Shown here piece by piece: positions 1 through 58,610 of a stretch of 64,000 nt of DNA. A model generated the notes under the pieces. The model had not been told where the DNA came from. It searched no databases and was given only the letters and a program-made list of their open reading frames with translations. The stretch lies in NCBI RefSeq assembly GCF_003334355.1, contig NZ_QOWP01000013.1; one strand, written 5' to 3'. The stretch is from Escherichia coli (GTDB taxonomy: Bacteria > Pseudomonadota > Gammaproteobacteria > Enterobacterales > Enterobacteriaceae). Position numbers and translations under genes: made by a program. Numbering within the stretch: position 1 is the stretch's first letter; every line of letters starts with the position of its first letter.

Positions 1-77
1 TGTTTTTGTCATGTGAGTCACCTCTGACTGAGAGTTTACTCACTTAGCCGCGTGTCCACTATTGCTGGGTAAGATCA
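1..77 (-). mobile_element. IS3 left terminal inverted repeat plus first 4 codons of orfA (insE); element body lies upstream of the window
   Basis: Reverse complement of 1-77 reads TGATCTTACCCAGCAATAGTGGACACGCGGCTAAGTGAGTAAACTCTCAGTCAGAGGTGACTCACATGACAAAAACA, matching the IS3 end and orfA start (ATG ACA AAA ACA = MTKT) as I recall them. All three plus-strand frames hit stops within nt 1-47. Confidence 0.85.
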
Positions 78-695
78 GATAGCCCATCAGCCATAGCGGT
101 TGGGCAGCGTAAAGACGGGGAAATCTACACAGCGGATCTCAAAAGTAAGGCGCTTGCATTCACGATGGCACACGCACTTGAGCTCGGTGATAAAATGATT
201 TCAATCAATCTATTACCTATGACCCTGGTTAACGAACCTGACGCAGTCTCTTTTTTACTTAATGAAATAAAGGCCAATGCTCTGGTGCCTGAACAAATCA
301 TCGTTGAATTTACTGAAAGTGAAGTCATATCTCGGTTTGATGAGTTTGCCGAAGCGATTAAATCGCTAAAGGCTGCTGGTATCAGTGTAGCAATTGATCA
401 TTTTGGCGCAGGTTTTGCTGGTTTGTTACTCCTGTCACGCTTCCAGCCTGACAGAATTAAAATCAGTCAGGAATTGATTACCAATGTTCATAAAAGTGGG
501 CCACGGCAGGCAATTATTCAGGCGATCATAAAATGCTGTACATCACTTGAAATTCAAGTCAGTGCTATGGGCGTGGCAACACCAGAAGAGTGGATGTGGC
601 TTGAATCCGCAGGAATTGAGATGTTTCAGGGAGATCTGTTTGCTAAAGCTAAATTGAATGGTATCCCTTCCATAGCGTGGCCAGAGAAAAAATAA
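78..695 (+). pseudogene. bluF: bluF (ycgF) 3-prime fragment encoding the EAL-domain portion; 5-prime BLUF-domain part separated by the IS3 insertion
   Basis: Open frame from 78 (DSPSAIAVGQRKDGEIYTADLKSKALAFTMAHALELGDK...) to stop at 695; EAL-like C-terminus; synteny immediately upstream of bluR. Preceded directly by the IS3 end; no in-frame continuation upstream. Confidence 0.7.
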
Positions 696-814
696 TTTTC
701 AGCACATTCTTTCACATGATTTCAGTAAATCATCGTGAAAATGAATACGTTACGTTTAAATTTAATCCACATTAAAAATAATGTTTCATCCAATTTAGCT
801 GAAATCTTATTTAT

Positions 815-848
815 ACTTTGTACAATTTTAGCGTATATTGTACAAAGT
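815..848. promoter_or_regulatory. Perfect 12-bp inverted repeat ACTTTGTACAAT-N10-ATTGTACAAAGT upstream of bluR; candidate MerR-type operator
   Basis: Seen directly in sequence about 50-85 bp upstream of the bluR GTG start; the factor that binds it is inferred, not known. Confidence 0.4.
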
Positions 849-899
849 ATTATTGGGTCGTGTACAGGCGACGGAGATTTGTGACCGCAAGGAGGAATT

Positions 900-1631
900 G
901 TGGCTTATTACAGCATTGGTGATGTTGCTGAACGTTGCGGGATTAATCCTGTCACTCTCCGGGCCTGGCAACGCCGCTACGGTTTGTTAAAACCACAGCG
1001 CAGTGAAGGCGGACACCGACTCTTTGATGAAGAAGACATACAACGCATCGAAGAGATCAAGCGTTGGATAAGTAATGGCGTCCCTGTAGGCAAAGTTAAA
1101 GCATTACTGGAAACCACCAGCCAGGATACGGAAGATGACTGGAGCCGCCTGCAAGAAGAGATGATGTCAATTCTTCGCATGGCTAATCCTGCCAAACTAC
1201 GCGCGAGAATTATTTCACTGGGTCGAGAGTACCCAGTAGATCAATTGATTAATCATGTTTACCTTCCTGTTCGCCAGCGTCTCGTGCTTGATCACAACAC
1301 CTCCCGCATTATGAGCAGTATGTTTGACGGCGCATTAATTGAATACGCAGCAACCTCGCTTTTCGAAATGCGCCGTAAGCCCGGTAAAGAAGCCATTCTG
1401 ATGGCGTGGAATGTTGAAGAGAGAGCACGATTGTGGCTGGAAGCATGGCGTTTATCATTGTCAGGATGGCACATTTCTGTTCTTGCTGATCCCATTGAAT
1501 CGCCGCGCCCGGAACTGTTCCCGACGCAAACATTGATTGTCTGGACAGGCATGGCACCAACGAGAAGGCAAAACGAACTTTTACAACACTGGGGTGAGCA
1601 AGGTTATAAAGTCATCTTTCATGCCCCCTAA
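900..1631 (+). CDS. bluR: MerR-family transcriptional repressor BluR (YcgE)
   Basis: 243-aa ORF with GTG start preceded by AAGGAGG; N-terminal MerR HTH ([30 protein letters not shown]); synteny bluF-bluR-ycgX. Confidence 0.85.
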
Positions 1632-1851
1632 TTTCACCTTTATCCCGCCCCTTAGACAGAATGTTATAATCTGAACCCACAACAGCGTTTGTACCGGAGC
1701 TGGTCCGTTGCAAAATGCTCACCGGGAGAATTCAGATATTCCCTCTATCACACTCTGTACATATCACAGCCAAAGGACAGACCAGATTGAAGTGGTAAAA
1801 CCGATCGTGCACACTACGCAGTCTCACAACTAACAAGAGGTTATTATCCTG

Positions 1852-2256
1852 ATGGATCAGGTCGTTGTTTTTCAAAAGATGTTTGAGCAAGTGAGAAAAG
1901 AGCAAAACTTCTCCTGGTTTTATTCAGAATTAAAACATCACCGTATTGCACATTACATTTATTATCTGGCTACGGATAACATCAGAATTATTACTCACGA
2001 TGATACGGTTTTGTTATTAAGAGGAACCAGGAACCTGTTAAAAGTTAGTACGACCAAGAACCCTGCTAAAATAAAAGAGGCCGCATTGCTTCATATTTGC
2101 GGAAAATCTACATTTCGGGAATACTGTTCAACACTGGCAGGCGCGGGCGTTTTCCGGTGGGTTACTGATGTTAATCATAACAAACGCAGTTACTACGCCA
2201 TTGATAATACGCTTTTATATATTGAAGATGTAGAAAATAATAAACCATTAATCTAG
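1852..2256 (+). CDS. ycgX: DUF1398-family protein YcgX
   Basis: 134-aa ORF; length and position between bluR and iraM match the K-12 ycgX. Confidence 0.75.
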   Translation: MDQVVVFQKMFEQVRKEQNFSWFYSELKHHRIAHYIYYLATDNIRIITHDDTVLLLRGTRNLLKVSTTKNPAKIKEAALLHICGKSTFREYCSTLAGAGVFRWVTDVNHNKRSYYAIDNTLLYIEDVENNKPLI

Positions 2257-2465
2257 CTAAAGTTGGATACTTAAGAAATGCTTCATAATTCAGTAAGGCA
2301 TTAGCATAATGGAAATAAAAGTGCAGAGACTATCTCTATGGATGATTAATACTGTCTTTTTATTGTCACCCATAAATAATCACCAGACTAATACTATCAA
2401 CTTGATATTTGAAATGTGATCACTTGACTTTTGATACGTTATTTTATAACGGTTAACATATTTAT

Positions 2466-2512
2466 AAAAACAACGGCCGTGCCACACGTCCGTTTCAATA
2501 CTTAACGCACAT
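2466..2512 (-). terminator. Terminator-like hairpin (ACGGCCGTG..CACGTCCGT) with T-run on the minus strand; imperfect copy of the icd terminator
   Basis: Hairpin plus TGTTTTT on the minus strand; about 80 percent identical over 45 bp to 3333-3380. Confidence 0.45.
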
Positions 2513-2955
2513 GTATTTTGGTTTAGTCATCATCCGGTTATATGTATTTTAGCCAGGAACAGGTTAAATCATTCCTATATAACTCAAAAATTGAAACCTT
2601 ATTCTCATGTCATGCTTATATTCATTATTATCGTTATATAAAAAGGCAACCATAATGTTTAGCAAATTGGCACAAAGTAGCATAAAGGCTATGTTTTAAT
2701 TACAGGATGTTCAGTCATTTGAATGTATAACATTATAGCTAAACAAATCTAAAACGAAGTCAATAATTTATTGCTTTCACAAAATCTCATTTTGTTTAAC
2801 ATCCATTGAGATTCCTTGCTTTAAATTTTATTTTATATAAGCCATCATTTTAATTAATTTATTTTTTTGAGGGGGGGGTAATATACTCATATGCAAAATC
2901 AAGAAATAAACATCCTAATGAACCATATTAAATACCGTGGGATAAGACATAACAA

Positions 2956-3279
2956 ATGAAGTGGATAGTAATTGACACGGTAATTCAACCTACATGTGGT
3001 ATATCTTTTTCAGCCATATGGGGTAATATGAAAATGATCATCTGGTATCAATCTACTATATTTCTCCCTCCTGGCAGTATATTTACACCGGTTAAGTCTG
3101 GTATTATCCTTAAGGATAAAGAATATCCTATTACTATTTATCACATCGCACCATTCAACAAGGATTTATGGAGTTTACTCAAAAGCAGTCAAGAGTGTCC
3201 TCCAGGAGAAAGCAAAATAACAAATAAATGTTTACATAATAGTTGCATTATAAAAATATGCCCATATGGGCTCAAGTAA
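2956..3279 (+). CDS. iraM: Anti-adaptor protein IraM (YcgW), RssB inhibitor that stabilises RpoS
   Basis: 107-aa ORF ([18 protein letters not shown]...) in an AT-rich segment between ycgX and icd; matches my recollection of IraM in length and sequence. Confidence 0.75.
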
Positions 3280-3321
3280 TGGGCTTCATATAAATATGCT
3301 CGATATGCTATTAATAATATC

Positions 3322-3357
3322 CACATAAATAAAACAACGGGCGTGTTATACGCCCGT
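3322..3357 (-). terminator. icd rho-independent terminator
   Basis: Perfect 7-bp stem ACGGGCG/CGCCCGT with 7-nt loop immediately after the icd stop, followed on the minus strand by TGTTTTATTT. Confidence 0.75.
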
Positions 3358-3381
3358 TTCAATATTTAACACATGGAGAGA

Positions 3382-4632
3382 TTACATGTTTTCGATGATC
3401 GCTTCACCAAACTCTGAACATTTCAGCAGCTTAGCGCCTTCCATCAGACGTTCGAAGTCATAAGTTACGGTCTTGGCATTGATTGCGCCTTCCATACCTT
3501 TAACAATCAGGTCAGCCGCTTCAGTCCAACCCATATGGCGCAGCATCATCTCAGCGGAGAGAATAATAGAGCCAGGATTTACTTTGTCCTGACCGGCATA
3601 TTTCGGCGCAGTACCGTGGGTGGCTTCAAACAGGGCGCATTCGTCACCGATGTTTGCACCAGGGGCGATACCGATACCGCCAACCTGCGCTGCCAGGGCG
3701 TCAGAAATGTAGTCACCGTTCAGGTTCATACAGGCGATAACATCATATTCAGCCGGACGCAGCAGGATCTGTTGCAGGAATGCATCAGCAATCACGTCTT
3801 TAATGACGATCTCTTTGCCAGTGTTCGGGTTTTTAACTTTCAGCCACGGGCCACCGTCGATCAGTTCACCGCCAAACTCTTCACGCGCCAGCTGGTAGCC
3901 CCAGTCTTTAAACGCTCCTTCGGTGAACTTCATGATGTTGCCTTTGTGCACCAGAGTCACAGAGTCACGATCGTTAGCAATTGCGTATTCGATCGCTGCA
4001 CGAACCAGACGTTTGGTGCCTTCTTCCGAACACGGCTTAATACCGATACCACAATGTTCCGGGAAGCGAATTTTCTTCACCCCCATCTCTTCACGCAGGA
4101 ATTTAATCACTTTCTCGGCGTCGGCAGAGTCTGCTTTCCATTCGATACCCGCATAAATGTCTTCCGAGTTTTCACGGAAGATAACCATATCGGTCAGTTC
4201 AGGGTGTTTAACCGGGCTTGGAGTGCCCTGATAGTAACGTACCGGACGCAGGCAGATGTAGAGATCCAGTTCCTGGCGCAGGGCAACGTTCAGAGAGCGA
4301 ATACCGCCACCAACCGGAGTGGTCAGCGGACCTTTAATGGCAACGCGATATTCACGAATCAGATCAAGAGTTTCAGCAGGCAGCCAGACGTCCTGACCAT
4401 AAACCTGTGTGGATTTTTCACCGGTGTAAATTTCCATCCAGGAGATTTTACGCTCGCCTTTATAGGCTTTCTCGACTGCAGCGTCGACCACTTTCAGCAT
4501 GGCTGGGGTTACATCTACACCGATTCCATCACCTTCAATGTAAGGGATAATCGGATTTTCAGGAACGTTGAGTTTGCCGTTTTGCAGGGTGATCTTCTTG
4601 CCTTGTGCCGGAACAACTACTTTACTTTCCAT
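3382..4632 (-). CDS. icd: Isocitrate dehydrogenase (NADP), ancestral-type 3-prime end with no e14 prophage
   Basis: 416-aa [41 protein letters not shown]...; C-terminus ...[21 protein letters not shown]. Confidence 0.95.
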
Positions 4633-4803
4633 TCACCTCTCCTTCGAGCGCTACTGGTTTGCTCGTCTGCCACCACGTTGCATATGCGTTTGCGTCCTGC
4701 GATACGGATGCTTTAGAGCAATTTTTTGTTAATGATTTGTAATTGGCTTGTCAATACTACCCTATTGTTTGCCGTCATGAAAGATGCGCGTTATTAGGCT
4801 ATA

Positions 4804-5457
4804 ATGCGGCAATTCATAATCTCTGAAAATACCATGCAAAAAACTTCTTTTAGAAATCACCAGGTTAAGCGATTCAGCTCGCAACGTTCTACCAGGCGTA
4901 AACCTGAAAACCAGCCCACGCGTGTGATCCTGTTCAATAAACCCTACGATGTTCTTCCGCAGTTCACCGATGAAGCCGGACGCAAAACATTAAAAGAATT
5001 CATCCCGGTTCAGGGCGTTTATGCAGCAGGTCGCCTTGACCGCGATAGCGAAGGGTTGCTGGTGCTGACCAATAACGGCGCGTTGCAGGCGCGTTTAACC
5101 CAGCCGGGTAAACGCACCGGAAAAATCTATTATGTGCAGGTGGAAGGTATTCCCACACAAGACGCACTTGAAGCCTTGCGCAATGGCGTAACCTTAAATG
5201 ATGGCCCTACCCTGCCCGCCGGCGCGGAGCTGGTTGACGAACCCGCGTGGTTATGGCCGCGGAATCCATCAATTCGTGAACGCAAAAGTATTCCCACCAG
5301 CTGGCTGAAGATCACCTTATATGAAGGACGTAATCGCCAGGTGCGCCGCATGACCGCCCATGTTGGCTTCCCCACGCTGCGACTGATTCGCTATGCGATG
5401 GGTGATTACTCTTTGGATAATCTTGCCAATGGCGAATGGCGAGAAGTGACAGATTAA
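4804..5457 (+). CDS. rluE: 23S rRNA pseudouridine(2457) synthase RluE
   Basis: 217-aa ORF with RsuA/RluE-family motifs ([19 protein letters not shown]); synteny. Confidence 0.9.
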
Positions 5458-7765: not shown

Positions 7766-9139
<1,374 letters not shown>

Positions 9140-9230
9140 ACCTCGTATCAGTGCCGGATGGCGATGCTGTCCGGCCTGCTTATTAAGATTATCCGCTTTT
9201 TATTTTTTCACTTTACCTCCCCTCCCCGCT

Positions 9231-9247
9231 GGTTTATTTAATGTTTA
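9231..9247 (+). promoter_or_regulatory. PhoP box (GGTTTA-N5-TGTTTA) of the autoregulated phoPQ promoter
   Basis: Perfect direct repeat GGTTTATTTAATGTTTA about 65 bp upstream of the phoP ATG. Confidence 0.8.
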
Positions 9248-9307
9248 CCCCCATAACCACATAATCGCGTTACACTATTTTAATAATTAAGACAGGGAGA
9301 AATAAAA

Positions 9308-9979
9308 ATGCGCGTACTGGTTGTTGAAGACAATGCGTTGTTACGTCACCACCTTAAAGTTCAGATTCAGGATGCTGGTCATCAGGTCGATGACGCAGAA
9401 GATGCCAAAGAAGCCGATTATTATCTCAATGAACATATACCGGATATTGCGATTGTCGATCTCGGATTGCCAGACGAGGACGGTCTGTCACTGATTCGCC
9501 GCTGGCGTAGCAACGATGTTTCACTGCCGATTCTGGTATTAACCGCCCGTGAAAGCTGGCAGGACAAAGTCGAAGTATTAAGTGCCGGTGCTGATGATTA
9601 TGTGACTAAACCGTTTCATATTGAAGAGGTGATGGCGCGAATGCAGGCATTAATGCGGCGTAATAGCGGTCTGGCTTCACAGGTCATTTCGCTCCCCCCG
9701 TTTCAGGTTGATCTCTCTCGCCGTGAATTATCTATTAATGACGAAGTGATCAAACTGACCGCGTTCGAATACACCATTATGGAAACGTTGATACGCAATA
9801 ATGGCAAAGTGGTGAGCAAAGATTCGTTAATGCTACAACTCTATCCGGATGCGGAGCTGCGGGAAAGCCATACCATTGATGTACTGATGGGACGTCTGCG
9901 CAAAAAAATTCAGGCACAATATCCGCAAGAAGTGATTACCACCGTTCGCGGCCAGGGCTATCTGTTCGAATTGCGCTGA
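9308..9979 (+). CDS. phoP: Two-component response regulator PhoP
   Basis: 223-aa [43 protein letters not shown]... Confidence 0.95.
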
Positions 9980-11439
9980 TGAAAAAATTACTGCGTCTTT
10001 TTTTCCCGCTCTCGCTGCGGGTACGTTTTCTGTTGGCAACGGCAGCGGTAGTACTGGTGCTTTCGCTTGCCTACGGAATGGTCGCGCTGATCGGTTATAG
10101 CGTCAGTTTCGATAAAACTACGTTTCGGCTGTTACGTGGCGAAAGCAATCTGTTCTATACCCTTGCGAAGTGGGAAAACAATAAGTTGCATGTCGAGTTA
10201 CCAGAAAATATCGACAAGCAAAGCCCCACCATGACGCTAATTTATGATGAGAACGGGCAGCTTTTATGGGCGCAACGTGACGTGCCCTGGCTGATGAAGA
10301 TGATCCAGCCTGACTGGCTGAAATCGAATGGTTTTCATGAAATTGAAGCGGATGTTAACGATACCAGCCTCTTGCTGAGTGGAGATCATTCGATACAGCA
10401 ACAGTTGCAGGAAGTGCGGGAAGATGATGACGACGCGGAGATGACCCACTCGGTGGCAGTAAACGTCTACCCGGCAACATCGCGGATGCCAAAATTAACC
10501 ATTGTGGTGGTGGATACCATTCCGGTGGAGCTAAAAAGTTCCTATATGGTCTGGAGCTGGTTTATCTATGTGCTCTCAGCCAATCTGCTGTTAGTGATCC
10601 CGCTGCTGTGGGTCGCCGCCTGGTGGAGTTTACGCCCCATCGAAGCCCTGGCAAAAGAAGTCCGCGAACTGGAAGAACATAACCGCGAATTGCTCAATCC
10701 AGCCACAACGCGAGAACTGACCAGTCTGGTACGAAACCTGAACCGATTGTTAAAAAGTGAACGCGAACGTTACGACAAATACCGTACGACGCTCACCGAC
10801 CTGACCCATAGTCTGAAAACGCCACTGGCGGTGCTGCAAAGTACGCTGCGTTCTCTGCGTAGTGAAAAGATGAGCGTCAGTGATGCTGAGCCGGTAATGC
10901 TGGAGCAAATCAGCCGCATTTCACAGCAAATTGGCTACTACCTGCATCGTGCCAGTATGCGCGGCGGGACATTGCTCAGCCGCGAGCTGCATCCGGTCGC
11001 CCCACTGCTGGACAATCTCACCTCAGCGCTGAACAAAGTGTATCAACGCAAAGGGGTCAATATCTCTCTCGATATTTCGCCAGAGATCAGCTTTGTCGGT
11101 GAGCAGAACGATTTTGTCGAGGTGATGGGCAATCTGCTGGATAATGCCTGTAAATATTGCCTCGAGTTTGTCGAAATTTCTGCAAGGCAAACCGACGAGC
11201 ATCTCTATATTGTGGTCGAGGATGATGGACCCGGTATTCCATTAAGCAAGCGAGAGGTCATTTTCGACCGTGGTCAACGGGTTGATACTTTACGCCCTGG
11301 GCAAGGTGTAGGGCTGGCGGTAGCCCGCGAAATCACCGAGCAATATGAGGGTAAAATCGTCGCCGGAGAGAGCATGCTGGGCGGTGCGCGGATGGAGGTG
11401 ATTTTTGGTCGCCAGCATTCTGCGCCGAAAGATGAATAA
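9979..11439 (+). CDS. phoQ: Sensor histidine kinase PhoQ
   Basis: 486-aa ORF overlapping the phoP stop; two TM segments, H-box and ATPase motifs. Confidence 0.95.
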
Positions 11440-11514
11440 ATATGTCCATACTTCACGCATTACGTTAAGCATCCGTTATAATCGGTTGCAGATACCAGCC
11501 TGTGGATGCTTAAC

Positions 11515-12636
11515 ATGGAATACCAACTCACTCTTAACTGGCCCGATTTTCTTGAACGTCACTGGCAGAAACGCCCGGTGGTGTTAAAACGCGGCTTTAA
11601 TAATTTTATTGACCCGATCTCTCCAGACGAGTTGGCGGGTCTGGCGATGGAAAGCGAAGTCGACAGTCGACTGGTCAGTCACCAGGATGGCAAATGGCAG
11701 GTCAGCCACGGTCCGTTCGAAAGCTACGATCATCTCGGTGAAACTAACTGGTCATTGTTAGTGCAAGCAGTAAATCACTGGCATGAGCCGACCGCCGCGC
11801 TGATGCGACCGTTCCGTGAACTACCGGACTGGCGTATTGATGATCTGATGATCTCTTTTTCTGTACCTGGCGGCGGCGTCGGCCCGCATCTCGATCAGTA
11901 CGACGTGTTTATCATTCAGGGTACCGGACGTCGTCGCTGGCGAGTGGGCGAAAAGCTGCAAATGAAACAGCACTGCCCACACCCGGATCTGTTACAGGTC
12001 GATCCGTTCGAAGCCATCATCGATGAAGAGCTGGAGCCTGGCGATATTCTTTATATTCCGCCAGGATTCCCGCATGAAGGCTACGCGCTGGAAAATGCGA
12101 TGAACTATTCCGTGGGTTTTCGCGCGCCAAATACGCGGGAATTAATTAGCGGATTTGCCGATTATGTGCTGCAACGTGAACTGGGCGGCAACTACTACAG
12201 CGATCCTGATGTTCCACCTCGCGCTCATCCTGCGGACGTTCTGCCGCAAGAGATGGATAAACTGCGTGAGATGATGCTCGAATTGATCAACCAGCCGGAA
12301 CACTTTAAGCAATGGTTTGGCGAGTTTATATCCCAGTCACGTCATGAACTGGATATCGCGCCGCCAGAGCCGCCTTATCAGCCGGATGAAATCTACGATG
12401 CGCTGAAACAAGGTGATGTGCTGGTGCGCCTGGGTGGTCTGCGCGTATTGCGCATTGGCGACGACGTGTATGCCAATGGTGAGAAGATCGATTCCCCGCA
12501 CCGTCCGGCACTGGATGCACTCGCCAGCAACATTGCGCTGACCGCGGAGAATTTTGGCGATGCGCTGGAAGATCCGTCATTCCTCGCGATGCTCGCGGCG
12601 CTGGTCAATAGCGGATACTGGTTCTTCGAAGGGTAA
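11515..12636 (+). CDS. roxA: Ribosomal protein uL16 arginine hydroxylase RoxA (YcfD), JmjC/cupin
   Basis: Start set at MEYQLTLNW for 373 aa; synteny after phoQ. Confidence 0.85.
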   Translation: MEYQLTLNWPDFLERHWQKRPVVLKRGFNNFIDPISPDELAGLAMESEVDSRLVSHQDGKWQVSHGPFESYDHLGETNWSLLVQAVNHWHEPTAALMRPFRELPDWRIDDLMISFSVPGGGVGPHLDQYDVFIIQGTGRRRWRVGEKLQMKQHCPHPDLLQVDPFEAIIDEELEPGDILYIPPGFPHEGYALENAMNYSVGFRAPNTRELISGFADYVLQRELGGNYYSDPDVPPRAHPADVLPQEMDKLREMMLELINQPEHFKQWFGEFISQSRHELDIAPPEPPYQPDEIYDALKQGDVLVRLGGLRVLRIGDDVYANGEKIDSPHRPALDALASNIALTAENFGDALEDPSFLAMLAALVNSGYWFFEG

Positions 12637-12651
12637 GTTTGGATTTAAGCC

Positions 12652-12683
12652 GGATGCGGCATCACATGCCGCATCCCTTTTCG
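12652..12683. terminator. Bidirectional terminator between convergent roxA and pepT
   Basis: Perfect 11-bp stem GGATGCGGCAT/ATGCCGCATCC with 3-nt loop, then CTTTTCGC. Confidence 0.6.
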
Positions 12684-12684
12684 C

Positions 12685-13911
12685 TTACTTCCGTTGCGCC
12701 GTTAACTCGGCAATACGGACGATCACCTGCACCGCTTTTTCCATACCTTCCAGAGTCACAAACTCATGCTTACCATGATAGTTGTAACCGCCAGTGAACA
12801 AGTTCGGGCACGGTAATCCCATAAACGACAACTGCGCGCCGTCGGTACCGCCGCGGATCGGTTTCAGTTCCGGTTCAATATCGCAGTCACGCATCGCCTG
12901 CTGGGCGATATCGAGAATATGCGGATGCTCAACCACTTTCTCGCGCATATTGTAGTAACTGTCTTCAATCACCAATTCAATGTAGCAATCAGGATGTAAC
13001 CCTTTGCCCACTTTTTTGGCGATCTCCATCATTTTACGTTTACGCGCTTCAAACTGTTTACGGTCGAAATCACGGATGATGTAGTGCATATCGGCTCGGT
13101 CAACGGTGCCTTTCATGCTCGCCAGGTGATAGAAACCTTCATAGCCTTCTGTCATTTCCGGGCTTTCATCCGCCGGAACTTCCGCATGAATACGTGCCGC
13201 CAGCGACAGCGCATTTACCATCACTCCTTTCGCCGTGCCCGGATGAACATTGTTACCGACAATTTTGATATTGACCGACGCGGCGTTGAAGTTTTCAAAC
13301 TCCAGTTCGCCTACGCCACCACCATCAACGGTGTAAGCCCAGCGGGCATCGAAGGCATCAACATCAAAATGTTTCGCCCCTTTGCCCACTTCTTCATCCG
13401 GGGTAAAGGCGACGCGAATATCACCATGCGGAATGTTTTTCTGTTGCAATACCGCCAGCGCGGTCATGATTTCTGCAATACCGGCTTTGTCATCGGCACC
13501 TAACAAGGTTTTACCATCGGTAGTAATCAACGTCTGACCCAGTAGCTGATGCAGCACCGGGAACATAACCGGTGATAAAACTTCATCGCCGATACCCAGC
13601 GCAATATCGCCACCGCGATAGTTTTCAACAATTTGCGGATTAACATTTTTGCCGCTGCAATCCGGTGAGGTATCCACATGAGAAATAAAGCCAATCGCCG
13701 GGATATCGCCAGGGACGTTAGCCGGTAACGTCGCCATCAAAGTGCCCTTCTCACTTAAGGTCACATTGATAAGCCCCATTTCTTCGAGCTGCTCTTTCAG
13801 CAGATGCAATAACTTCCATTGGCCTTCCGTGCTGGGAACCTGTCTCACCCCTGCTTTTGATTGGGTATCCAGAGACACGTAGTTCAAAAATCGCTCAAGT
13901 AGTTTATCCAT
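12685..13911 (-). CDS. pepT: Peptidase T (tripeptide aminopeptidase)
   Basis: Start set at [14 protein letters not shown] for 408 aa; M20 peptidase motifs. Confidence 0.9.
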
Positions 13912-14160
13912 GTAGTCACCCTCACTTTTTGTGACAACATTATTAAGAAGCAAGAAAAGACAAATATTGCGTCAGGTCACTTTTACCCCTGCAAGCGGGA
14001 ATATTTATCAGCATTACCTTAATGAATATAAAGCTAAGCCAGTAATTCACAACAAAGATTGGCGATTCAAGCGGTTTGCCGTAGAATTACCGCCCTCATT
14101 AAGAGTCACCAAGGTGGTTAACCACAAACCCCGCATCGGTAAGCCATCCGTTGCGTTTAC

Positions 14161-15297
14161 ATGGGACAGAGTAAAAAATTGAATAAACAACCGAGTTCGC
14201 TTTCACCGCTGGTGCAATTGGCGGGAATTCGCAAATGCTTTGATGGTAAAGAGGTCATTCCCCAGCTGGATCTGACTATCAACAATGGCGAGTTCCTCAC
14301 GCTGCTTGGCCCTTCTGGCTGCGGTAAAACAACCGTTCTTCGCCTGATTGCAGGTCTGGAAACTGTTGATTCCGGACGCATCATGCTGGATAACGAGGAC
14401 ATCACCCACGTTCCGGCGGAAAACCGCTATGTGAACACTGTTTTCCAAAGCTACGCACTTTTCCCCCACATGACCGTGTTCGAAAATGTGGCCTTTGGGT
14501 TGCGCATGCAAAAAACCCCCGCTGCTGAAATTACGCCCCGCGTGATGGAAGCCCTGCGGATGGTGCAACTGGAAACCTTCGCTCAACGTAAACCGCATCA
14601 GCTCTCTGGTGGTCAACAGCAACGCGTCGCCATTGCTCGCGCGGTGGTTAACAAGCCTCGTCTGTTGTTGCTGGATGAGTCGCTCTCAGCGCTGGATTAC
14701 AAACTGCGTAAGCAAATGCAGAACGAGCTGAAAGCGTTACAGCGTAAGCTTGGTATTACCTTCGTCTTTGTCACTCACGATCAGGAAGAAGCGCTCACCA
14801 TGTCAGACAGGATTGTGGTGATGCGCGAGGGTCGTATTGAGCAAGATGGTACACCGCGCGAAATTTACGAAGAGCCGAAAAACCTGTTTGTTGCCGGCTT
14901 CATTGGCGAAATCAATATGTTTAACGCCACTGTCATCGAACGTCTAGACGAGCAGCGCGTACGCGCCAACGTTGAAGGCCGCGAATGTAATATCTACGTT
15001 AACTTCGCCGTTGAACCGGGGCAAAAACTGCATGTTCTGCTGCGCCCGGAAGACTTACGTGTTGAAGAGATTAACGACGACAACCACGCTGAAGGGCTGA
15101 TTGGTTACGTTCGTGAGCGTAACTACAAAGGCATGACGCTGGAGTCGGTTGTTGAACTGGAAAATGGCAAGATGGTGATGGTCAGCGAATTCTTCAATGA
15201 AGACGACCCTGACTTTGACCACTCTCTCGACCAAAAAATGGCCATTAATTGGGTAGAAAGCTGGGAGGTCGTACTGGCTGATGAAGAACACAAGTAA
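14161..15297 (+). CDS. potA: Spermidine/putrescine ABC transporter ATPase PotA
   Basis: 378-aa ORF; Walker [13 protein letters not shown] signature [14 protein letters not shown]. Confidence 0.95.
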
Positions 15298-15310
15298 GTT
15301 CCAGAATGTA

Positions 15311-16138
15311 GTGATTGTCACTATTGTCGGTTGGCTTGTGTTGTTTGTCTTTCTGCCCAACCTGATGATCATTGGCACCAGCTTTTTGACCCGCGACGAC
15401 GCCAGTTTCGTCAAAATGGTCTTTACGCTGGATAACTACACGCGTCTGCTCGATCCGCTCTATTTTGAAGTGCTATTGCACTCGCTGAATATGGCGCTGA
15501 TCGCCACCCTCGCCTGCCTGGTGCTGGGCTACCCGTTTGCCTGGTTTCTGGCGAAGCTACCACACAAGGTGCGTCCGCTGCTGCTGTTTCTGCTGATTGT
15601 TCCCTTCTGGACCAACTCACTGATTCGCATCTACGGGCTGAAAATTTTCCTCAGCACCAAAGGCTATCTCAACGAGTTTTTGCTCTGGCTGGGCGTTATC
15701 GACACACCAATTCGTATCATGTTCACGCCCAGTGCGGTGATTATCGGTCTGGTTTACATTCTGCTACCGTTTATGGTGATGCCGCTGTACTCCAGTATCG
15801 AAAAACTGGATAAGCCGTTGCTTGAGGCGGCGCGCGATCTCGGTGCCAGCAAGTTACAGACTTTTATCCGTATCATTATTCCACTGACGATGCCGGGAAT
15901 TATTGCCGGATGTCTGCTGGTGATGCTGCCAGCGATGGGCCTGTTCTATGTGTCCGACCTGATGGGCGGTGCGAAAAACCTGCTGATCGGTAACGTCATC
16001 AAGGTACAGTTCCTCAATATTCGTGACTGGCCGTTTGGTGCAGCCACCAGCATTACGCTGACTATCGTAATGGGCCTGATGTTGCTGGTTTACTGGCGCG
16101 CTTCTCGTCTGCTGAATAAAAAGGTGGAACTCGAATGA
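15311..16138 (+). CDS. potB: Spermidine/putrescine ABC transporter permease PotB
   Basis: GTG at 15311 gives the 275-aa product I recall; the ORF track also allows an in-frame ATG at 15281 (285 aa). Start uncertain. Confidence 0.85.
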   Translation: MIVTIVGWLVLFVFLPNLMIIGTSFLTRDDASFVKMVFTLDNYTRLLDPLYFEVLLHSLNMALIATLACLVLGYPFAWFLAKLPHKVRPLLLFLLIVPFWTNSLIRIYGLKIFLSTKGYLNEFLLWLGVIDTPIRIMFTPSAVIIGLVYILLPFMVMPLYSSIEKLDKPLLEAARDLGASKLQTFIRIIIPLTMPGIIAGCLLVMLPAMGLFYVSDLMGGAKNLLIGNVIKVQFLNIRDWPFGAATSITLTIVMGLMLLVYWRASRLLNKKVELE

Positions 16139-16929
16139 TCGGTCGACTGCTTCGCGGCGGTTTTATGACCGCTATCTACGCGTACCTGTATATCCCAATC
16201 ATTATTTTGATTGTGAACTCCTTTAACAGCTCGCGCTTTGGCATCAACTGGCAGGGTTTTACCACCAAATGGTATAGCCTGCTGATGAACAACGACAGCC
16301 TGTTACAGGCAGCGCAGCATTCACTAACAATGGCGGTGTTTTCGGCGACGTTTGCTACGCTTATCGGTTCACTGACGGCAGTTGCGCTGTACCGTTATCG
16401 CTTTCGCGGTAAGCCGTTCGTTAGCGGAATGCTGTTTGTGGTAATGATGTCACCAGATATCGTGATGGCAATTTCGCTGCTGGTGCTGTTTATGCTGCTG
16501 GGTATTCAGCTTGGCTTCTGGTCGCTGCTGTTCTCGCATATCACCTTCTGCCTGCCATTTGTGGTGGTGACGGTGTATTCGCGCCTGAAAGGTTTTGACG
16601 TGCGGATGCTGGAAGCGGCGAAAGATCTCGGTGCCAGCGAATTTACCATTCTGCGAAAAATCATTCTGCCACTGGCAATGCCAGCGGTGGCGGCGGGCTG
16701 GGTGTTAAGCTTTACCCTGTCGATGGACGATGTGGTAGTTTCTTCGTTCGTCACCGGACCAAGTTATGAAATTCTGCCGTTAAAAATTTATTCGATGGTC
16801 AAAGTCGGCGTATCGCCGGAAGTTAACGCGCTGGCAACCATATTACTGGTGCTGTCGCTGGTGATGGTTATTGCCAGCCAGCTTATTGCTCGTGATAAAA
16901 CGAAAGGTAACACAGGGGACGTTAAATGA
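16135..16929 (+). CDS. potC: Spermidine/putrescine ABC transporter permease PotC
   Basis: 264-aa membrane ORF overlapping the potB stop. Confidence 0.95.
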   Translation: MIGRLLRGGFMTAIYAYLYIPIIILIVNSFNSSRFGINWQGFTTKWYSLLMNNDSLLQAAQHSLTMAVFSATFATLIGSLTAVALYRYRFRGKPFVSGMLFVVMMSPDIVMAISLLVLFMLLGIQLGFWSLLFSHITFCLPFVVVTVYSRLKGFDVRMLEAAKDLGASEFTILRKIILPLAMPAVAAGWVLSFTLSMDDVVVSSFVTGPSYEILPLKIYSMVKVGVSPEVNALATILLVLSLVMVIASQLIARDKTKGNTGDVK

Positions 16930-17972
16930 AAAAATGGTCACGCCACCTGCTCGCGGCGGGTGCTCTGGCACTGGGCATGAGCGCCGCTCACGCCGATGAC
17001 AACAACACGCTGTATTTCTACAACTGGACCGAGTACGTGCCGCCAGGACTGCTTGAACAGTTCACCAAAGAAACCGGTATTAAGGTTATCTATTCGACTT
17101 ACGAGTCGAACGAAACCATGTATGCCAAGCTGAAAACGTACAAAGACGGTGCCTATGACCTGGTGGTTCCTTCAACCTATTACGTCGATAAAATGCGTAA
17201 AGAAGGGATGATCCAGAAGATCGACAAGTCGAAGTTAACGAACTTCAGCAATCTCGATCCAGACATGCTCAATAAGCCGTTTGACCCGAATAACGATTAC
17301 TCCATTCCGTATATCTGGGGTGCGACGGCGATTGGTGTTAACGGTGATGCGGTGGATCCGAAATCTGTCACCAGCTGGGCCGATCTGTGGAAGCCTGAGT
17401 ACAAAGGCAGCCTGCTGTTGACCGACGATGCCCGTGAAGTGTTCCAGATGGCGCTGCGTAAGCTGGGCTACTCCGGTAACACCACCGATCCGAAAGAGAT
17501 TGAAGCTGCATATAACGAGCTGAAAAAACTGATGCCAAACGTGGCAGCCTTTAACTCCGATAACCCGGCTAACCCGTACATGGAAGGCGAAGTTAACCTC
17601 GGCATGATCTGGAACGGTTCTGCTTTCGTTGCACGCCAGGCGGGTACGCCAATTGACGTGGTATGGCCGAAAGAAGGCGGCATTTTCTGGATGGACAGCC
17701 TGGCGATCCCGGCAAATGCCAAAAACAAAGAAGGCGCGCTGAAATTGATCAACTTCCTGCTGCGCCCGGATGTGGCAAAACAGGTTGCCGAAACTATCGG
17801 TTATCCAACGCCAAACCTTGCGGCGCGTAAGCTGTTAAGCCCGGAAGTGGCGAACGATAAAACGCTCTACCCGGATGCTGAAACCATTAAAAATGGCGAA
17901 TGGCAGAATGACGTTGGCGCAGCCAGCAGCATTTATGAAGAGTATTATCAGAAGCTGAAAGCAGGACGTTAA
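16926..17972 (+). CDS. potD: Spermidine/putrescine periplasmic binding protein PotD
   Basis: 348-aa ORF with signal peptide. Confidence 0.95.
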   Translation: MKKWSRHLLAAGALALGMSAAHADDNNTLYFYNWTEYVPPGLLEQFTKETGIKVIYSTYESNETMYAKLKTYKDGAYDLVVPSTYYVDKMRKEGMIQKIDKSKLTNFSNLDPDMLNKPFDPNNDYSIPYIWGATAIGVNGDAVDPKSVTSWADLWKPEYKGSLLLTDDAREVFQMALRKLGYSGNTTDPKEIEAAYNELKKLMPNVAAFNSDNPANPYMEGEVNLGMIWNGSAFVARQAGTPIDVVWPKEGGIFWMDSLAIPANAKNKEGALKLINFLLRPDVAKQVAETIGYPTPNLAARKLLSPEVANDKTLYPDAETIKNGEWQNDVGAASSIYEEYYQKLKAGR

Positions 17973-17980
17973 TTCAGCAA

Positions 17981-18009
17981 GCGGGCGGTGGTATTACCGC
18001 CCGTTTTTT
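17981..18009 (+). terminator. potABCD operon terminator
   Basis: Hairpin GCGGGCGGTGGTATTACCGCCCG followed by TTTTTT. Confidence 0.7.
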
Positions 18010-18029
18010 AGTTAGCAAGGATGTGGCTA

Positions 18030-18491
18030 ATGAGTCAGGACAGTAAAGTTTTCTTTCGTATATTCCTCGGTATCGGTCTGGTACTGATCCTCATTTCTGT
18101 TGTTGTCTTTTATAACCAGTTCACCTATAGCAAAGACGCGATTCATACCGAAGGCGTCATTGTTGATACCGTCTGGCACTCCAGTCATTCTCATCGCACG
18201 GGTAAAGATGGTTCGTGGTATCCCGTCGTTGCCTTTCGACCGACGCCAGATTACACGCTAATTTTCAATTCGAGTATCGGCAGCGATTTTTATGAAGACA
18301 GCGAAGGCGATAAAGTTAATGTTTATTATTCTCCCGGGCATCCTGAAAAGGCTGAGATAAATAACCCGTGGGTTAATTTTTTTAAATGGGGGTTTATCGG
18401 CATTATGGGCGTTATTTTTATCGCCGTCGGTTTATTAATAAGTATGCCCTCCTCTAAAAAATCACGCAGGAAACGGAAGTCCCGCCCATGA
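18030..18491 (+). CDS. ymfA: Inner membrane protein YmfA (DUF3592)
   Basis: Start set at MSQDSK for 153 aa; two hydrophobic segments. Confidence 0.8.
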
Positions 18492-19276
18492 AAAAATTCA
18501 TTATACTGCTCAGTTTACTGATACTCCTGCCTCTGACAGCAGCCAGCAAGCCATTAATTCCAATAATGAAGACACTTTTTACGGACGTTACCGGTACTGT
18601 ACCAGATGCTGAAGAGATCGCGCATAAAGCCGAGCTTTTTCGCCAACAAACGGGAATTGCACCGTTTATTGTGGTTTTACCCGACATTAATAATGAAGCC
18701 AGTCTCAGACAAAATGGTAAAGCGATGCTGGCGCATGCGTCATCTTCATTGAGTGATGTAAAAGGAAGTGTTCTGTTACTATTTACTACCCGCGAACCAC
18801 GGTTAATTATGATCACCAACGGCCAGGTTGAAAGCGGTCTGGACGATAAACATCTCGGCCTTCTGATAGAAAATCACACACTGGCTTATTTACATGCTGG
18901 CCTCTGGTATCAGGGAATCAATAATGCATTGGCTGTTCTACAAGCACAGATATTAAAACAACCGACGCCTCCACTAACATATTATCCGCATCCAGGACAA
19001 CAGCATGAAAATGATCCCCCCGGCAGCACCAACACATTAGGTTTTATCGCCTGGGCTGCAACGTTTGTCTTATTTTCCTCGGTCTTTTACTACACGACTC
19101 GTTTTATTTATGCGTTAAAATTTGCAGTAGCGATGACTATTGCCAATATGGGCTATCAGGCTTTATGCCTGTATATCGATAATAGCTTTGCGATTACCAG
19201 AATATCGCCACTCTGGGCAGGGCTGATTGGTGTCTGTACGTTTATTGCCGTGTTGTTATTGACGAGTAAACGGTAA
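18488..19276 (+). CDS. ycfZ: Inner membrane protein YcfZ
   Basis: 262-aa ORF overlapping the ymfA stop (ATGA); synteny. Confidence 0.8.
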
Positions 19277-19303
19277 AAGAGACAGTAAAATGCGTGTGTA
19301 TTA

Positions 19304-19405
19304 TGCCGGTTGCGGCGCGAACGCCTTATCCGGCCCACAAAACCCGCAAATTCAATTAATTGCGTCCCCTTGCAGGCCTGATAAGCGTAGTGCATCAGGC
19401 AATGC
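19304..19405. repeat. REP/BIME element between ycfZ and cobB
   Basis: Two REP-type palindromes: GCCGGTTGCGGCG..CGCCTTATCCGGCC and GCCTGATAAGCGTAGTGCATCAGGC. Confidence 0.75.
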
Positions 19406-20234
19406 TTCCCGCTTTTAATCCCTTCAGCAACTTTTCAACAAACTCAGGCACCACCTGGCTTGCCGGGCCGTAATATTTCTCGGCAAATTCATTACCAACC
19501 TGACTCGGTTCAAGATTCAGTTCCACGGTGTGCGCGCCATGCAGTTTCGCTTCGTGAACAAACCCAGCCGCCGGATAAACATGCCCGGATGTGCCAATGG
19601 CAATGAAAATATCGGCCATCGACAACGCCATATAAATTTCATCCATGCCGAGTGGCATTTCGCCAAACCACACTACATGCGGGCGCAAGGGTGCCGGAAA
19701 CTGGCAACAATGGCATTTATCTTCTGGGGTAACGTCTCCTGTCCAGTCGAGAACCTGACCACTTTGTGAACAACGCACTTTCAGCAGTTCCCCATGCATA
19801 TGAATCACATTGGTATTACCTGCGCGTTCATGCAGGTTGTCGATATTCTGCGTCACCAGCAAAAAGCGATCGCCGAGGGCGTCTTGCAGTTTAGCCAGCG
19901 CAAGATGCGCGGCGTTAGGCTGAATTTCTGGCTGCTGCAGCTGTCGACGACGGGCGTTATAAAACGCTTGCACCAGTTCAGGATCGCGATCGAAACCTTC
20001 CGGCGTTGCCACATCTTCAACCCGATGTTCTTCCCACAGGCCATCTGCGGCGCGAAAGGTACGAATACCTGATTCCGCAGAAATTCCTGCCCCTGTCAGT
20101 ACGAGTACTCTTGGTTTTTCCATTGCTTCCGGCACCACTTTATCTCTGAAAAAAATACGCTGACGCAAACGCTCGCGCAGGCGGCGTTTATTTTTACGAA
20201 AACGACTTAACCGATGACCCCGACGCGACAGCAT
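19395..20234 (-). CDS. cobB: NAD-dependent protein deacylase CobB (sirtuin), long isoform
   Basis: 279-aa ORF; internal Met ([19 protein letters not shown]) corresponds to the short isoform start. Confidence 0.9.
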
Positions 20235-25789: not shown

Positions 25790-28700
25790 ATGCCTGAACA
25801 ATATCGTTATACGCTGCCCGTCAAAGCGGGTGAGCAGCGTCTGCTGGGCGAGTTAACCGGCGCAGCCTGTGCAACGCTGGTAGCGGAAATTGCCGAACGT
25901 CACGCCGGTCCGGTGGTACTCATTGCACCAGATATGCAAAATGCTCTGCGTTTGCATGATGAAATCAGCCAGTTCACCGATCAGATGGTGATGAATCTGG
26001 CGGACTGGGAAACTCTTCCCTACGACAGTTTTTCGCCTCATCAGGACATTATCTCCTCGCGCCTTTCCACCCTTTACCAGCTACCGACGATGCAGCGTGG
26101 CGTACTGATTGTTCCGGTGAATACGCTTATGCAGCGCGTTTGCCCACACAGTTTTCTCCACGGTCATGCGCTGGTGATGAAAAAAGGTCAGCGCCTGTCA
26201 CGAGATGCATTACGAACCCAACTGGACAGCGCCGGTTATCGCCATGTTGACCAGGTGATGGAGCACGGCGAATACGCCACGCGCGGCGCGTTGCTGGATC
26301 TCTTCCCGATGGGGAGTGAGCTGCCTTATCGTCTTGATTTCTTTGATGATGAAATCGACAGCCTGCGGGTGTTTGACGTCGACAGCCAGCGCACGCTGGA
26401 GGAAGTAGAAGCGATCAATCTGCTGCCCGCGCACGAATTTCCGACCGATAAAGCGGCAATTGAACTGTTCCGCAGCCAGTGGCGCGATACCTTCGAAGTG
26501 AAGCGCGATCCGGAACATATTTACCAGCAAGTGAGTAAAGGCACATTACCTGCCGGGATCGAGTACTGGCAGCCATTGTTCTTCAGCGAACCACTGCCGC
26601 CGCTGTTCAGTTATTTCCCTGCCAATACCTTGCTGGTGAATACTGGCGATCTGGAAACCAGTGCCGAACGTTTCCAGGCTGACACGCTGGCGCGTTTTGA
26701 GAATCGCGGCGTCGATCCGATGCGCCCGCTGTTGCCACCACAATCGCTCTGGCTGCGGGTGGACGAGCTCTTCTCAGAGCTGAAAAACTGGCCCCGGGTG
26801 CAGCTAAAAACTGAACATTTACCGACAAAAGCAGCGAATGCCAATTTAGGCTTCGAGAAGCTGCCAGACCTGGCCGTTCAGGCACAACAAAAAGCGCCGC
26901 TGGATGCGCTGCGTAAGTTCCTCGAGTCTTTCGACGGTCCGGTGGTGTTCTCGGTAGAAAGTGAAGGTCGCCGTGAAGCGCTGGGTGAACTGCTCGCACG
27001 AATTAAAATTGCTCCGCAACGCATTATGCGTCTTGATGAAGCCAGCGACCGTGGGCGTTATCTGATGATTGGCGCTGCCGAACATGGTTTTGTCGATAAG
27101 GTGCGTAACCTAGCGCTGATTTGCGAAAGCGATCTGCTCGGTGAACGTGTTGCCCGCCGTCGTCAGGATTCTCGCCGCACCATCAACCCCGATACACTGA
27201 TCCGTAACCTTGCGGAGCTGCATATTGGCCAGCCGGTGGTCCATCTGGAGCACGGCGTCGGTCGCTATGCCGGAATGACCACGCTGGAAGCGGGCGGCAT
27301 TACCGGCGAGTACCTGATGCTCACCTATGCCAACGACGCCAAACTGTATGTTCCGGTGTCGTCACTGCATCTGATTAGCCGTTACGCAGGTGGCGCGGAA
27401 GAAAACGCCCCGCTGCATAAACTTGGCGGTGATGCGTGGTCACGCGCGCGGCAGAAAGCGGCGGAAAAAGTGCGTGATGTGGCGGCGGAATTGCTGGATA
27501 TCTACGCGCAACGCGCCGCCAAAGAGGGCTTCGCGTTTAAACACGATCGTGAGCAGTATCAGTTGTTCTGCGACAGCTTCCCGTTTGAAACCACGCCGGA
27601 TCAGGCTCAAGCCATTAATGCGGTGCTTAGCGACATGTGTCAGCCACTGGCAATGGATCGTCTGGTGTGCGGCGATGTTGGCTTTGGTAAAACAGAAGTG
27701 GCAATGCGCGCCGCTTTCCTGGCAGTAGATAACCACAAGCAGGTAGCGGTGCTGGTGCCTACCACCCTTCTCGCGCAGCAGCATTACGACAACTTCCGCG
27801 ACCGTTTCGCCAACTGGCCGGTCCGTATCGAAATGATCTCCCGTTTCCGCAGCGCCAAAGAGCAGACGCAAATCCTTGCGGAAGTGGCGGAAGGGAAAAT
27901 CGATATTCTGATCGGTACGCACAAACTGCTGCAAAGTGACGTCAAGTTTAAAGATTTAGGCCTGCTGATTGTCGATGAAGAACACCGCTTCGGGGTGCGT
28001 CATAAAGAGCGCATTAAAGCGATGCGCGCGAACGTGGATATTCTGACGCTTACTGCAACGCCGATCCCACGTACGCTGAATATGGCAATGAGCGGAATGC
28101 GTGACCTGTCGATTATCGCCACGCCGCCCGCCCGTCGTCTGGCAGTTAAAACCTTTGTCCGTGAGTATGACAGCCTGGTGGTCCGGGAGGCGATCCTGCG
28201 TGAAATTTTGCGCGGAGGACAGGTTTATTATCTCTACAATGATGTGGAAAACATTCAGAAAGCCGCCGAACGGCTGGCAGAACTGGTGCCAGAAGCGCGG
28301 ATCGCCATCGGTCACGGGCAGATGCGCGAGCGCGAACTGGAACGGGTGATGAATGATTTCCATCATCAACGTTTCAACGTGCTGGTTTGTACCACCATTA
28401 TCGAAACCGGGATCGACATCCCGACAGCCAACACCATTATCATTGAACGGGCGGATCACTTCGGTCTGGCGCAGCTGCACCAGTTACGCGGTCGCGTCGG
28501 ACGTTCGCATCATCAGGCATATGCATGGTTGCTGACACCGCATCCAAAAGCGATGACTACCGATGCACAAAAACGTCTTGAAGCGATTGCCTCGCTGGAA
28601 GATCTCGGGGCAGGTTTTGCGCTGGCAACGCACGATCTGGAGATTCGCGGCGCGGGTGAACTGCTTGGCGAAGAACAAAGCGGCTCAATGGAAACCATCG

Positions 28701-31616: not shown

Positions 31617-32156
31617 TTATACTTTGTTATTCAAAATCAGTTGCCCATTACTATCTAGCGGGATCTGCGTACCCGGATCGCGGTCCATGCGGATTTTGCC
31701 CTGCTGATCGCCAATCTTATAGGTCACATCATAACCGAGCATTTTTTCTGACTTGTCATACACCGTTTTACAACGCTGTTGCGTAGTCGTGTAAGTATCG
31801 CTTTCCTGGAGAGAGCCCTGGATCTGGTTACCGGCATATCCACCACCCAGCGCCCCCACAACAGTGGCGACATCTTTACCGCGACCACCGCCAAACTGAT
31901 GCCCTATCACGCCGCCAGCAACAGCGCCGAGCACCGACCCGGTAATGCGATTTTCATCCTGCACCGGTCGACGATGGGTCACTGTGACGTTGCGACACTC
32001 CTGACGCGGTGTTTTAACCGTTTCCTTGATTGGGGTTGCAGAAACAACCTGAGCGTATTGCGGGCCACGTTCAAACACGTTCAGACTGGCCACTGCCGCT
32101 ACGCCCAGCGCAGCTGCGACACCAATCCCGATACCCGCCAACATTGATTTATTCAC
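31617..32156 (-). CDS. ycfJ: Glycine-zipper membrane protein YcfJ
   Basis: GTG start gives the 179-aa product (MNKSMLAGIGIGVAAALG); Gly-rich repeats. Confidence 0.8.
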   Translation of the reverse strand: MNKSMLAGIGIGVAAALGVAAVASLNVFERGPQYAQVVSATPIKETVKTPRQECRNVTVTHRRPVQDENRITGSVLGAVAGGVIGHQFGGGRGKDVATVVGALGGGYAGNQIQGSLQESDTYTTTQQRCKTVYDKSEKMLGYDVTYKIGDQQGKIRMDRDPGTQIPLDSNGQLILNNKV

Positions 32157-32283
32157 GGGAACACCTCCTTCTTTGCAGTTATGCCAATCATGCAAGCGAA
32201 GGAGAAAAGCAGCTATCAGACAGAAGATGAAAAGCGCGGGAATGGCTGGAAATACTTAATGATTCGGAGGAGTCTGAAGGAAT

Positions 32284-32370
32284 GCCTGATGCGACGCTTA
32301 ACGCGTCTTATCAGGCCTACCGCTCGTACCATTTGTCCAGGGCGGATGAGGCGTTTATGCCACATCCGCC
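32284..32370. repeat. REP/BIME element between ycfJ and ndh
   Basis: GCCTGATGCGACGCTTAACGCGTCTTATCAGGCCTAC and GGCGGATGAGGCGTTTATGCCACATCCGCC palindromes. Confidence 0.75.
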
Positions 32371-32382
32371 AGTGTACGTCGA

Positions 32383-33687: not shown

Positions 33688-33957
33688 CGTGACCCCCTTA
33701 AATTTATTAACCAATTGTTAATTAATGGTTATTAACATAGCTCTTAATTAACAACAGGTTACAGCAATGAAAATGTTCTTCGCTATTGAGAATAACATGA
33801 ATGGTGCATTGGTCATACCAAAATTGATGTTAATCAAGTTTTGTTGCTGAAAAGATAGGCGACTTTACCGGGTGAGATCAAAAAACAGAGTTTATTGTTT
33901 ATTATTTGAGCGAATTTGTGAGAGTGATATAGAGTGAGGGGTGTATGCAGGGCGTTC

Positions 33958-34079
33958 GGTAGGCCTGATAAGAGGCGCATCAGGCATTGATGCTCGACTG
34001 TCGGATGCGGCGTAAACGCCTTATCCGACTTACAGAATTCGGAGCGCATCAGGTACCGGCAAGGTTACCTGATGCGACG
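33958..34079. repeat. REP/BIME cluster (three REP units) between ndh and ycfP
   Basis: AGGCCTGATAAGAGGCGCATCAGGC; TCGGATGCGGCGTAAACGCCTTATCCGAC; GCGCATCAGGTACCGGCAAGGTTACCTGATGCGACG. Confidence 0.75.
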
Positions 34080-34086
34080 AGGGCAT

Positions 34087-34629
34087 TTACCCGAGGGTTT
34101 TGAACGCTTTAATGCGCTGCAAATGCGGGGAGATATTCTTGAATTTGTGCGTCTGCTCTTCGTCCCAGACAATCTCGTAATAATGATGCAACTCTTCAGA
34201 TGTCCGCTGGCTGTTAAGCGCTTCATCATTACGCGACAAAATCACCAGGCAACGATCGCGATTCTTCTCGCGGAAGTTGGTCACACACTTAGTGGCAATA
34301 TCGGCATACTCTTCCGGGCGATCAATCTTGCCTTCCATGTTCTCATAAGGGAACAAATTAGGGTTGAAGATCACCTGGCGGATATCGCAAAGAAAACCAA
34401 TCCGTTCCGCCCAGTATCCGCCCAGACCAACGCCGCAAATCAGCGGACGCTCGTCGACGTTCAGTTGCAACATTTTGTCCACTTCTTTGAGCAGATGCTG
34501 CATATCATGTTTCGGATGCCGCGTACTGTAGCTTATCAAGCGTACATCCGGGTCAATAAACTGCAATTGTAAGACTTTCTCGTGGTTACCCGGACTGTTA
34601 GAGTCAAAACCGTGTAAATAGATAATCAT
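34087..34629 (-). CDS. ycfP: Esterase/alpha-beta hydrolase YcfP (UPF0227)
   Basis: Start set at [18 protein letters not shown] for 180 aa. Confidence 0.85.
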
Positions 34630-34651
34630 CGCTTCCTCACATAAGCCAGGG

Positions 34652-36492
<1,841 letters not shown>

Positions 36493-58590: not shown

Positions 58591-58610
58591 TAATTAGCTC
58601 AAAGTAATCA

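Follow-up and report, generated by a model that had tools for sequence, protein, structure and literature searches.

An empty e14/phage-21-type attachment site in the icd gene of a K-12-related Escherichia coli strain

The gene for NADP-dependent isocitrate dehydrogenase, icd, is interrupted by no prophage in the Escherichia coli DNA described here. We analyzed a stretch of 64,000 nucleotides (referred to below as the window), which almost certainly derives from a phylogroup-A-like strain that is related to K-12, but is not K-12, and whose e14/phage-21-type site in icd is empty. In the window, icd ends in the DNA that MG1655 carries as the pseudogene icdC, the surrounding genes are collinear with those of MG1655 once the e14 prophage is taken out, and e14 itself is absent.

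The existence of an empty e14 site at icd is already known and dates back to Hill, Gray and Brody (1989, J Bacteriol 171:4083). In two later sources, e14 is described as providing an alternative 3' end of icd, and icd is said to be restored, with conservative substitutions of Glu for Asp, when e14 is excised (Hill et al. 1989, via PMC6379469; bioRxiv 10.64898/2026.06.14.732165). The two substitutions that distinguish the window from MG1655, D398E and D410E, are the differences already reported for e14 excision in these sources.

In this study, we compared the icd locus of the window with MG1655, with complete E. coli genomes, with deposited Escherichia phages and with related species. These comparisons addressed the state of the attachment site, the origin of the 3' allele of icd, and the small gene cassette that contains the neighboring gene iraM.

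Results

Organization of the icd-iraM locus

The features of the locus are listed in Table 1. The DNA sequence of icd is that of the icd genes of E. coli PSS-12 and ST167, two complete genomes in which the locus is arranged as in the window and whose icd is annotated as WP_000444488.1, and its nucleotides 1-1086 show 0 differences from MG1655 icd. The gene is one unbroken ORF with the 11-bp core ATGCTGCGCCA intact, and the encoded protein terminates in GEAIIENM, with glutamate at residues 398 and 410 (E398 and E410). The region that had drawn attention originally, positions 3382-3560, consists of the 165-nt replaceable segment, including the core, and 14 nt upstream of it.

Table 1. Coordinates of features in and around the icd-iraM locus of the window
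Feature	Position	Strand	Basis or description
IS3, terminal 76 nt	1-76		Identical (100%) to the end of IS3 in NZ_CP062853.1
bluF, truncated, 3' part	77-695		MG1655 homology starts at 77
43-nt direct repeat, distal copy	2467-2509		Repeat search; beyond iraM and ymgK
iraM, RssB anti-adaptor	2956-3279	plus	ORF; 100% DNA identity to MG1655 iraM
Substitute stretch carried by icd-integrating phages	3329-3546	minus	165 nt coding plus ~52 nt terminator
43-nt direct repeat, icd-proximal copy	3331-3373		Repeat search; icd terminator region
icd rho-independent terminator hairpin	3336-3358	minus	Terminator scan; T-run then reaches ~3326
icd, intact, 416-aa NADP-dependent isocitrate dehydrogenase	3382-4632	minus	ORF list and DNA identity to annotated icd
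icd 3' segment replaceable by e14 and phage-21-type phages	3382-3546	minus	165 nt; chromosomal icdC-type allele, E398 and E410
11-bp core ATGCTGCGCCA	3536-3546	minus	Common to the empty site, MG1655 attL and MG1655 attR

A terminator scan identified a hairpin downstream of icd with a 9-pair stem containing 6 G-C pairs, a 5-nt loop and the tail GTTTTATTTA; this terminator is identical to the one that follows icdC in MG1655. The icd stop codon and the end of the convergent iraM are 102 nt apart, and these two genes are directly adjacent, with no integrase, excisionase or other prophage DNA in the gap. The sequence-only reading, in which icd ran without e14 into its terminator and iraM, was therefore borne out. 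In the wider neighborhood, the gene order bluF'-bluR-ycgX-(ymgL, ymgK)-iraM-icd-rluE-nudJ-mnmA-hflD-purB is the MG1655 order reversed, minus e14.

Comparison with MG1655, icdC and e14

A three-way alignment showed 100% identity between MG1655 icdC with its terminator and the terminal 165 nt of the window's icd plus the next 52 nt. From the corresponding end of MG1655 icd, which e14 supplies, the same 165 nt differ at 12 positions (92.7% identity). Only 2 of these 12 differences are non-synonymous, and the resulting D398E and D410E are the sole differences from the MG1655 Icd protein; the MG1655 icdC pseudogene (b4519), when translated, gives the E398/E410 version. The C-terminus of MG1655 Icd from which the initial reading had argued agrees with the MG1655 Icd sequence, and its view that two D-to-E differences fit an e14-free allele is upheld by the complete match to icdC.

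When e14 (MG1655 1196209-1211412) was deleted in silico, the resulting sequence was 100% identical to window positions 77-5015, and the e14-deleted chromosome formed a single collinear alignment with window positions 77-64000 at 99.3% identity, with no large indel. Searches of the 64-kb window by blastn with e14 interior DNA, and by tblastn with 15 e14 proteins including Lit, IntE, XisE, PinE and McrA, returned no match. The attL junction of e14 lysogens, with its D398/D410 3' end, is absent from the window, and icdC-type DNA occupies its place. The attachment site had been proposed to be unoccupied, and both the exact agreement with the in silico excision product and the absence of e14 matches in the window speak for this.

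The site in the window and the e14 site of K-12 lie in the same gene and share the same 11-bp core and the same 165-nt replaceable segment. However, a K-12 e14 lysogen has an attL/attR pair and e14 genes, whereas the window has neither, and its host is not K-12.

Attachment core and proposed mechanism

The core ATGCTGCGCCA is the only stretch present in all three of the empty site, attL and attR at which homology switches, and the e14 crossover would thus be placed in this region. We infer this position of the crossover, like the integration history of the locus, from the alignments. In the proposed scheme, the attachment site used by e14 and phage-21-type lambdoid phages, located inside the 3' end of icd, is empty in the window, and icd is therefore one continuous gene that closes with the chromosomal version of the 165-nt segment, followed by the chromosomal terminator. 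Integration of e14 would proceed by recombination in or beside ATGCTGCGCCA. The incoming e14 brings its own version of the last 165 nt, 92.7% identical, together with a terminator, such that icd remains functional, with D398 and D410 replacing E398 and E410. In K-12, the displaced chromosomal DNA is still found, as pseudogene icdC, at the end of e14 away from icd. For the window, e14 integration would either never have occurred or have been precisely reversed; both would leave identical DNA.

Strain background and the possibility of secondary loss of e14

Outside the icd neighborhood, the window differs from MG1655 in patchy blocks, with 416 differences in total (99.3% identity). These blocks are found at 9000-20000, 27000-28000, 32000-36000, 43000-47000 and 56000-60000, reach up to 35 differences per kb and are separated by difference-free stretches. 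The 5 kb around icd are identical to K-12. Phylogroup A strains usually differ from one another in such a recombination mosaic. An e14-cured K-12 was considered as the identity of the strain and was rejected on account of these differences outside the icd neighborhood.

The closest complete genome found was that of PSS-12 (NZ_AP027697.1), a human faecal isolate that is essentially identical to the window (100.0%) over 24.9 kb. Its icd is identical and its icd-iraM locus is empty as in the window, but its bluF is intact. In the window, IS3 joins bluF at nucleotide 593 of the coding sequence (codon 198 of 403), and bluF is disrupted; the insertion leaves most of the EAL-like domain cut off from the BLUF domain at the N-terminus. 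Other genomes carry IS3, IS1 or IS5 in bluF, at positions other than that in the window.

A secondarily empty site would be expected if the strain were derived from K-12, or recently descended from an e14 lysogen, and e14 had been precisely excised, e.g., after SOS induction. Window positions 77-5015 are base for base the precise excision product of MG1655, e14-cured laboratory strains of K-12 such as MC1061 carry the same allele, in icd and in a single place, and parallel e14 excisions have been described in evolution experiments (bioRxiv 10.64898/2026.06.14.732165). Since precise excision leaves no scar, secondary loss and a site that was never occupied result in the same DNA. The 416 differences nevertheless indicate that the strain is not K-12, and the nearest complete genome is a human faecal isolate, and we regard recent loss of e14 as quite improbable.

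Occurrence in E. coli genomes

Among 5426 complete E. coli genomes, 3014 had a contiguous icd-iraM junction, defined as at least 80% of window positions 2900-3800 in one place. The e14-type attL junction was detected in 281 of the 5426 (279 records at an identity of at least 99%). The window's 165-nt allele, as either icd or icdC, was present in 1421 of 5420 records at an identity of at least 99%. The empty icd site is therefore the textbook and majority state in E. coli, and an ordinary one. BL21(DE3) (Icd WP_000444487.1) and other unoccupied loci have the order ycgX-ymgL-ymgK-iraM-icd-rluE with no prophage, as does the window; they differ from it in the 3' allele, at 13-18 of 165 nt, and in a C-terminus that reads GDAIIKNM.

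These counts also bear on whether the icd-iraM junction could be an assembly artefact, in which collapse across the attL/attR repeat dropped a prophage. A repeat of ~217 bp is indeed common to attL and attR, and the first letters of the window belong to an IS element, a typical context for a contig break. However, between the repeat copies of a lysogen, 12 of the 165 coding positions are different, as are 17 of the 53 positions downstream; a collapse would for this reason usually yield a hybrid, and the segment in the window is purely icdC-type. In addition, the identical layout is found in thousands of complete genomes, closest relatives included. A genuine junction is strongly favored, and we consider an artefact extremely unlikely.

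Phages that integrate in icd

Twenty-eight deposited Escherichia phages, including phage 21, the lambda-like phages ev, 4C10 and 2E9, D2 and others, match the substitute stretch of the window (Table 1) at 90-96% identity. Their icd mimics start at window position 3546, 3545 or 3540. In phage 21 and the lambda-like phages, the icd 3' mimic and terminator lie beside int and xis and span exactly the same stretch. Occupied loci were represented by O157:H7 ECP19-798 and by MS20655, in which lambdoid prophages have int and xis immediately after icd. The copies of the phage 21 type encode GDAIIKNM, whereas the allele in the window encodes GEAIIENM and neither an integrase nor phage DNA comes after icd there.

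Origin of the 3' allele

The residues that distinguish the window from MG1655 were examined in an outgroup sample of 15 species among the matches listed. This sample consists of E. albertii and species of 14 other genera (Citrobacter, Enterobacter, Serratia, Yersinia and others), with no E. fergusonii or Salmonella. Residue 398 is Glu in most of these outgroups. At residue 410, 13 of the 15 species among the matches listed, including E. albertii, have Asp, two have Gln, and none has Glu.

Every other E. coli allele in the sample likewise has D410. The codon reads GAC or GAT in the other alleles sampled, E. albertii included, versus GAA in the window. One C-terminal sequence is shared by unoccupied, iraM-positive strains (BL21(DE3), 2014C-3075, AST215 and isolate 3702594), by the iraM-less E2348/69, and by the phage-supplied ends of O157 and MS20655; unoccupied strains such as BL21 share the C-terminus GDAIIKNM with phage-21-type prophage copies. 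The allele in the window also stands apart at two synonymous sites: no other allele sampled agrees with it at 1170, and just one does at 1203. The e14 copy of icd is no further from Citrobacter (10 differences) than from any of the E. coli alleles (11-14).

On these comparisons, E410 is a derived residue specific to the K-12 clade, not a phylogenetically ancestral one. The 3' end in the window had initially been called ancestral. This description stands for the K-12 lineage, as the state before e14 integration, and is valid only in that meaning; it fails phylogenetically, as E410 is absent from the sampled outgroups and from the other sampled E. coli alleles.

The E. albertii type strain, NBRC 107761, was tried as a clean outgroup and rejected, as its icd is followed by phage-like ORFs. 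Specifically, a truncated integrase-like ORF and phage-like ORFs follow the gene (3840-4466 of its locus). These ORFs suggest that the 3' end of E. albertii icd may itself be phage-supplied, and they show an icd integration hotspot that reaches beyond E. coli.

Divergence between E. coli strains amounts to 4-11% in the 165-nt 3' segment of icd, as compared to 0.7-2.3% in the first 1086 nt. This disparity fits repeated phage-mediated replacement of the 3' segment. Wang, Whittam and Selander reportedly described such replacement in 1997.

The iraM-ymgK cassette

The terminator region of icd is duplicated. The two copies of the 43-nt direct repeat (Table 1) are 84% identical, and their starts are 864 nt apart. 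The 864-bp cassette between them comprises ymgK (~2655-2699) and iraM and has a G+C content of 30%, versus 51% for the whole window. In E2348/69, the cassette is absent, a single copy of the terminator is present, and ymgL runs straight into icd. The cassette was undetectable in 1482 of 5426 genomes (27%). This number of iraM-less loci was obtained by scoring presence or absence of the cassette, as a query built on the E2348/69 junction joined pieces across the 864-bp cassette.

Homologues of IraM were found in phages. Full-length proteins with 65% identity are encoded between stx2B and a nanS-like gene in 45 records of Stx2-type phages, e.g., in Stx2a phage Stx2_EH2201 (3001-3324 of the retrieved record). 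A search of the literature on a horizontal origin of iraM at icd found no relevant paper.

These observations raise the possibility that the apparently native 3' end of icd is the legacy of an older, decayed icd-integrating element, which left the iraM-ymgK cassette between terminator copies. Such an origin would agree with the excess divergence of the last 165 nt (4-11% against 0.7-2.3% for the first 1086 nt), with the outlier position of the window allele at codon 410 and synonymous sites 1170 and 1203 in a comparison that included E. albertii, and with the duplicated 43-nt terminator that brackets an 864-bp cassette of 30% G+C. The absence of the cassette from E2348/69 and 1482 of 5426 genomes and the occurrence of 65%-identity IraM homologues beside stx2AB in Stx2 phages point the same way. 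On the other hand, none of the deposited Escherichia phages matched carries an identical copy of the window's 3' allele (best 95.9%). Window positions 2510-2960, from the distal terminator copy to iraM, were searched for a decayed remnant resembling icdC; nothing exceeded the shuffled controls, with a local alignment score of 20 versus a shuffle mean of 17.5 and 56 of 300 shuffles scoring equally high or higher. BL21, which is unoccupied and iraM-positive, carries a different 3' allele, and the cassette and the allele are therefore not strictly linked. Taken together, an origin of the 3' end from an older element seems rather unlikely to us, and we continue to read the locus as an empty e14/phage-21-type site.

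Two related suggestions are likewise tentative. First, the iraM-ymgK cassette could have arrived through the icd hotspot, although this is doubtful, and we offer it as a hypothesis because no decayed copy of icdC lies beside the distal terminator. Second, with a similarly low likelihood, the cassette might be all that is left of an earlier phage integration in icd; the 3' end with E410 of the K-12 clade would then itself have been phage-supplied, and IraM would be a phage gene domesticated via icd.

Discussion

At the canonical site, the strain from which the window derives has no e14 prophage, and the Icd that it encodes has glutamate at residues 398 and 410. Since this site is empty, and as far as the 64-kb window searched can tell, the strain probably lacks the e14-borne functions, i.e., McrA restriction, Lit exclusion and the Pin invertase. 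The initial reading stated this lack for the genome as a whole, which is wider than the 64 kb searched. Beyond annotation, the empty icd site matters little.

The comparisons have two consequences for the use of this locus. First, the last 165 nt of icd are hypervariable and churned by phages, and they should not be used for naive MLST or phylogeny. Second, iraM is not part of e14. In K-12, iraM has been described as being located on the e14 prophage (PMC4045071), but the gene lies outside attR and is present here without e14, and this placement is inaccurate. If the tentative phage origin of the cassette were true, IraM, an anti-adaptor that stabilizes RpoS, would have been delivered through icd by a phage.
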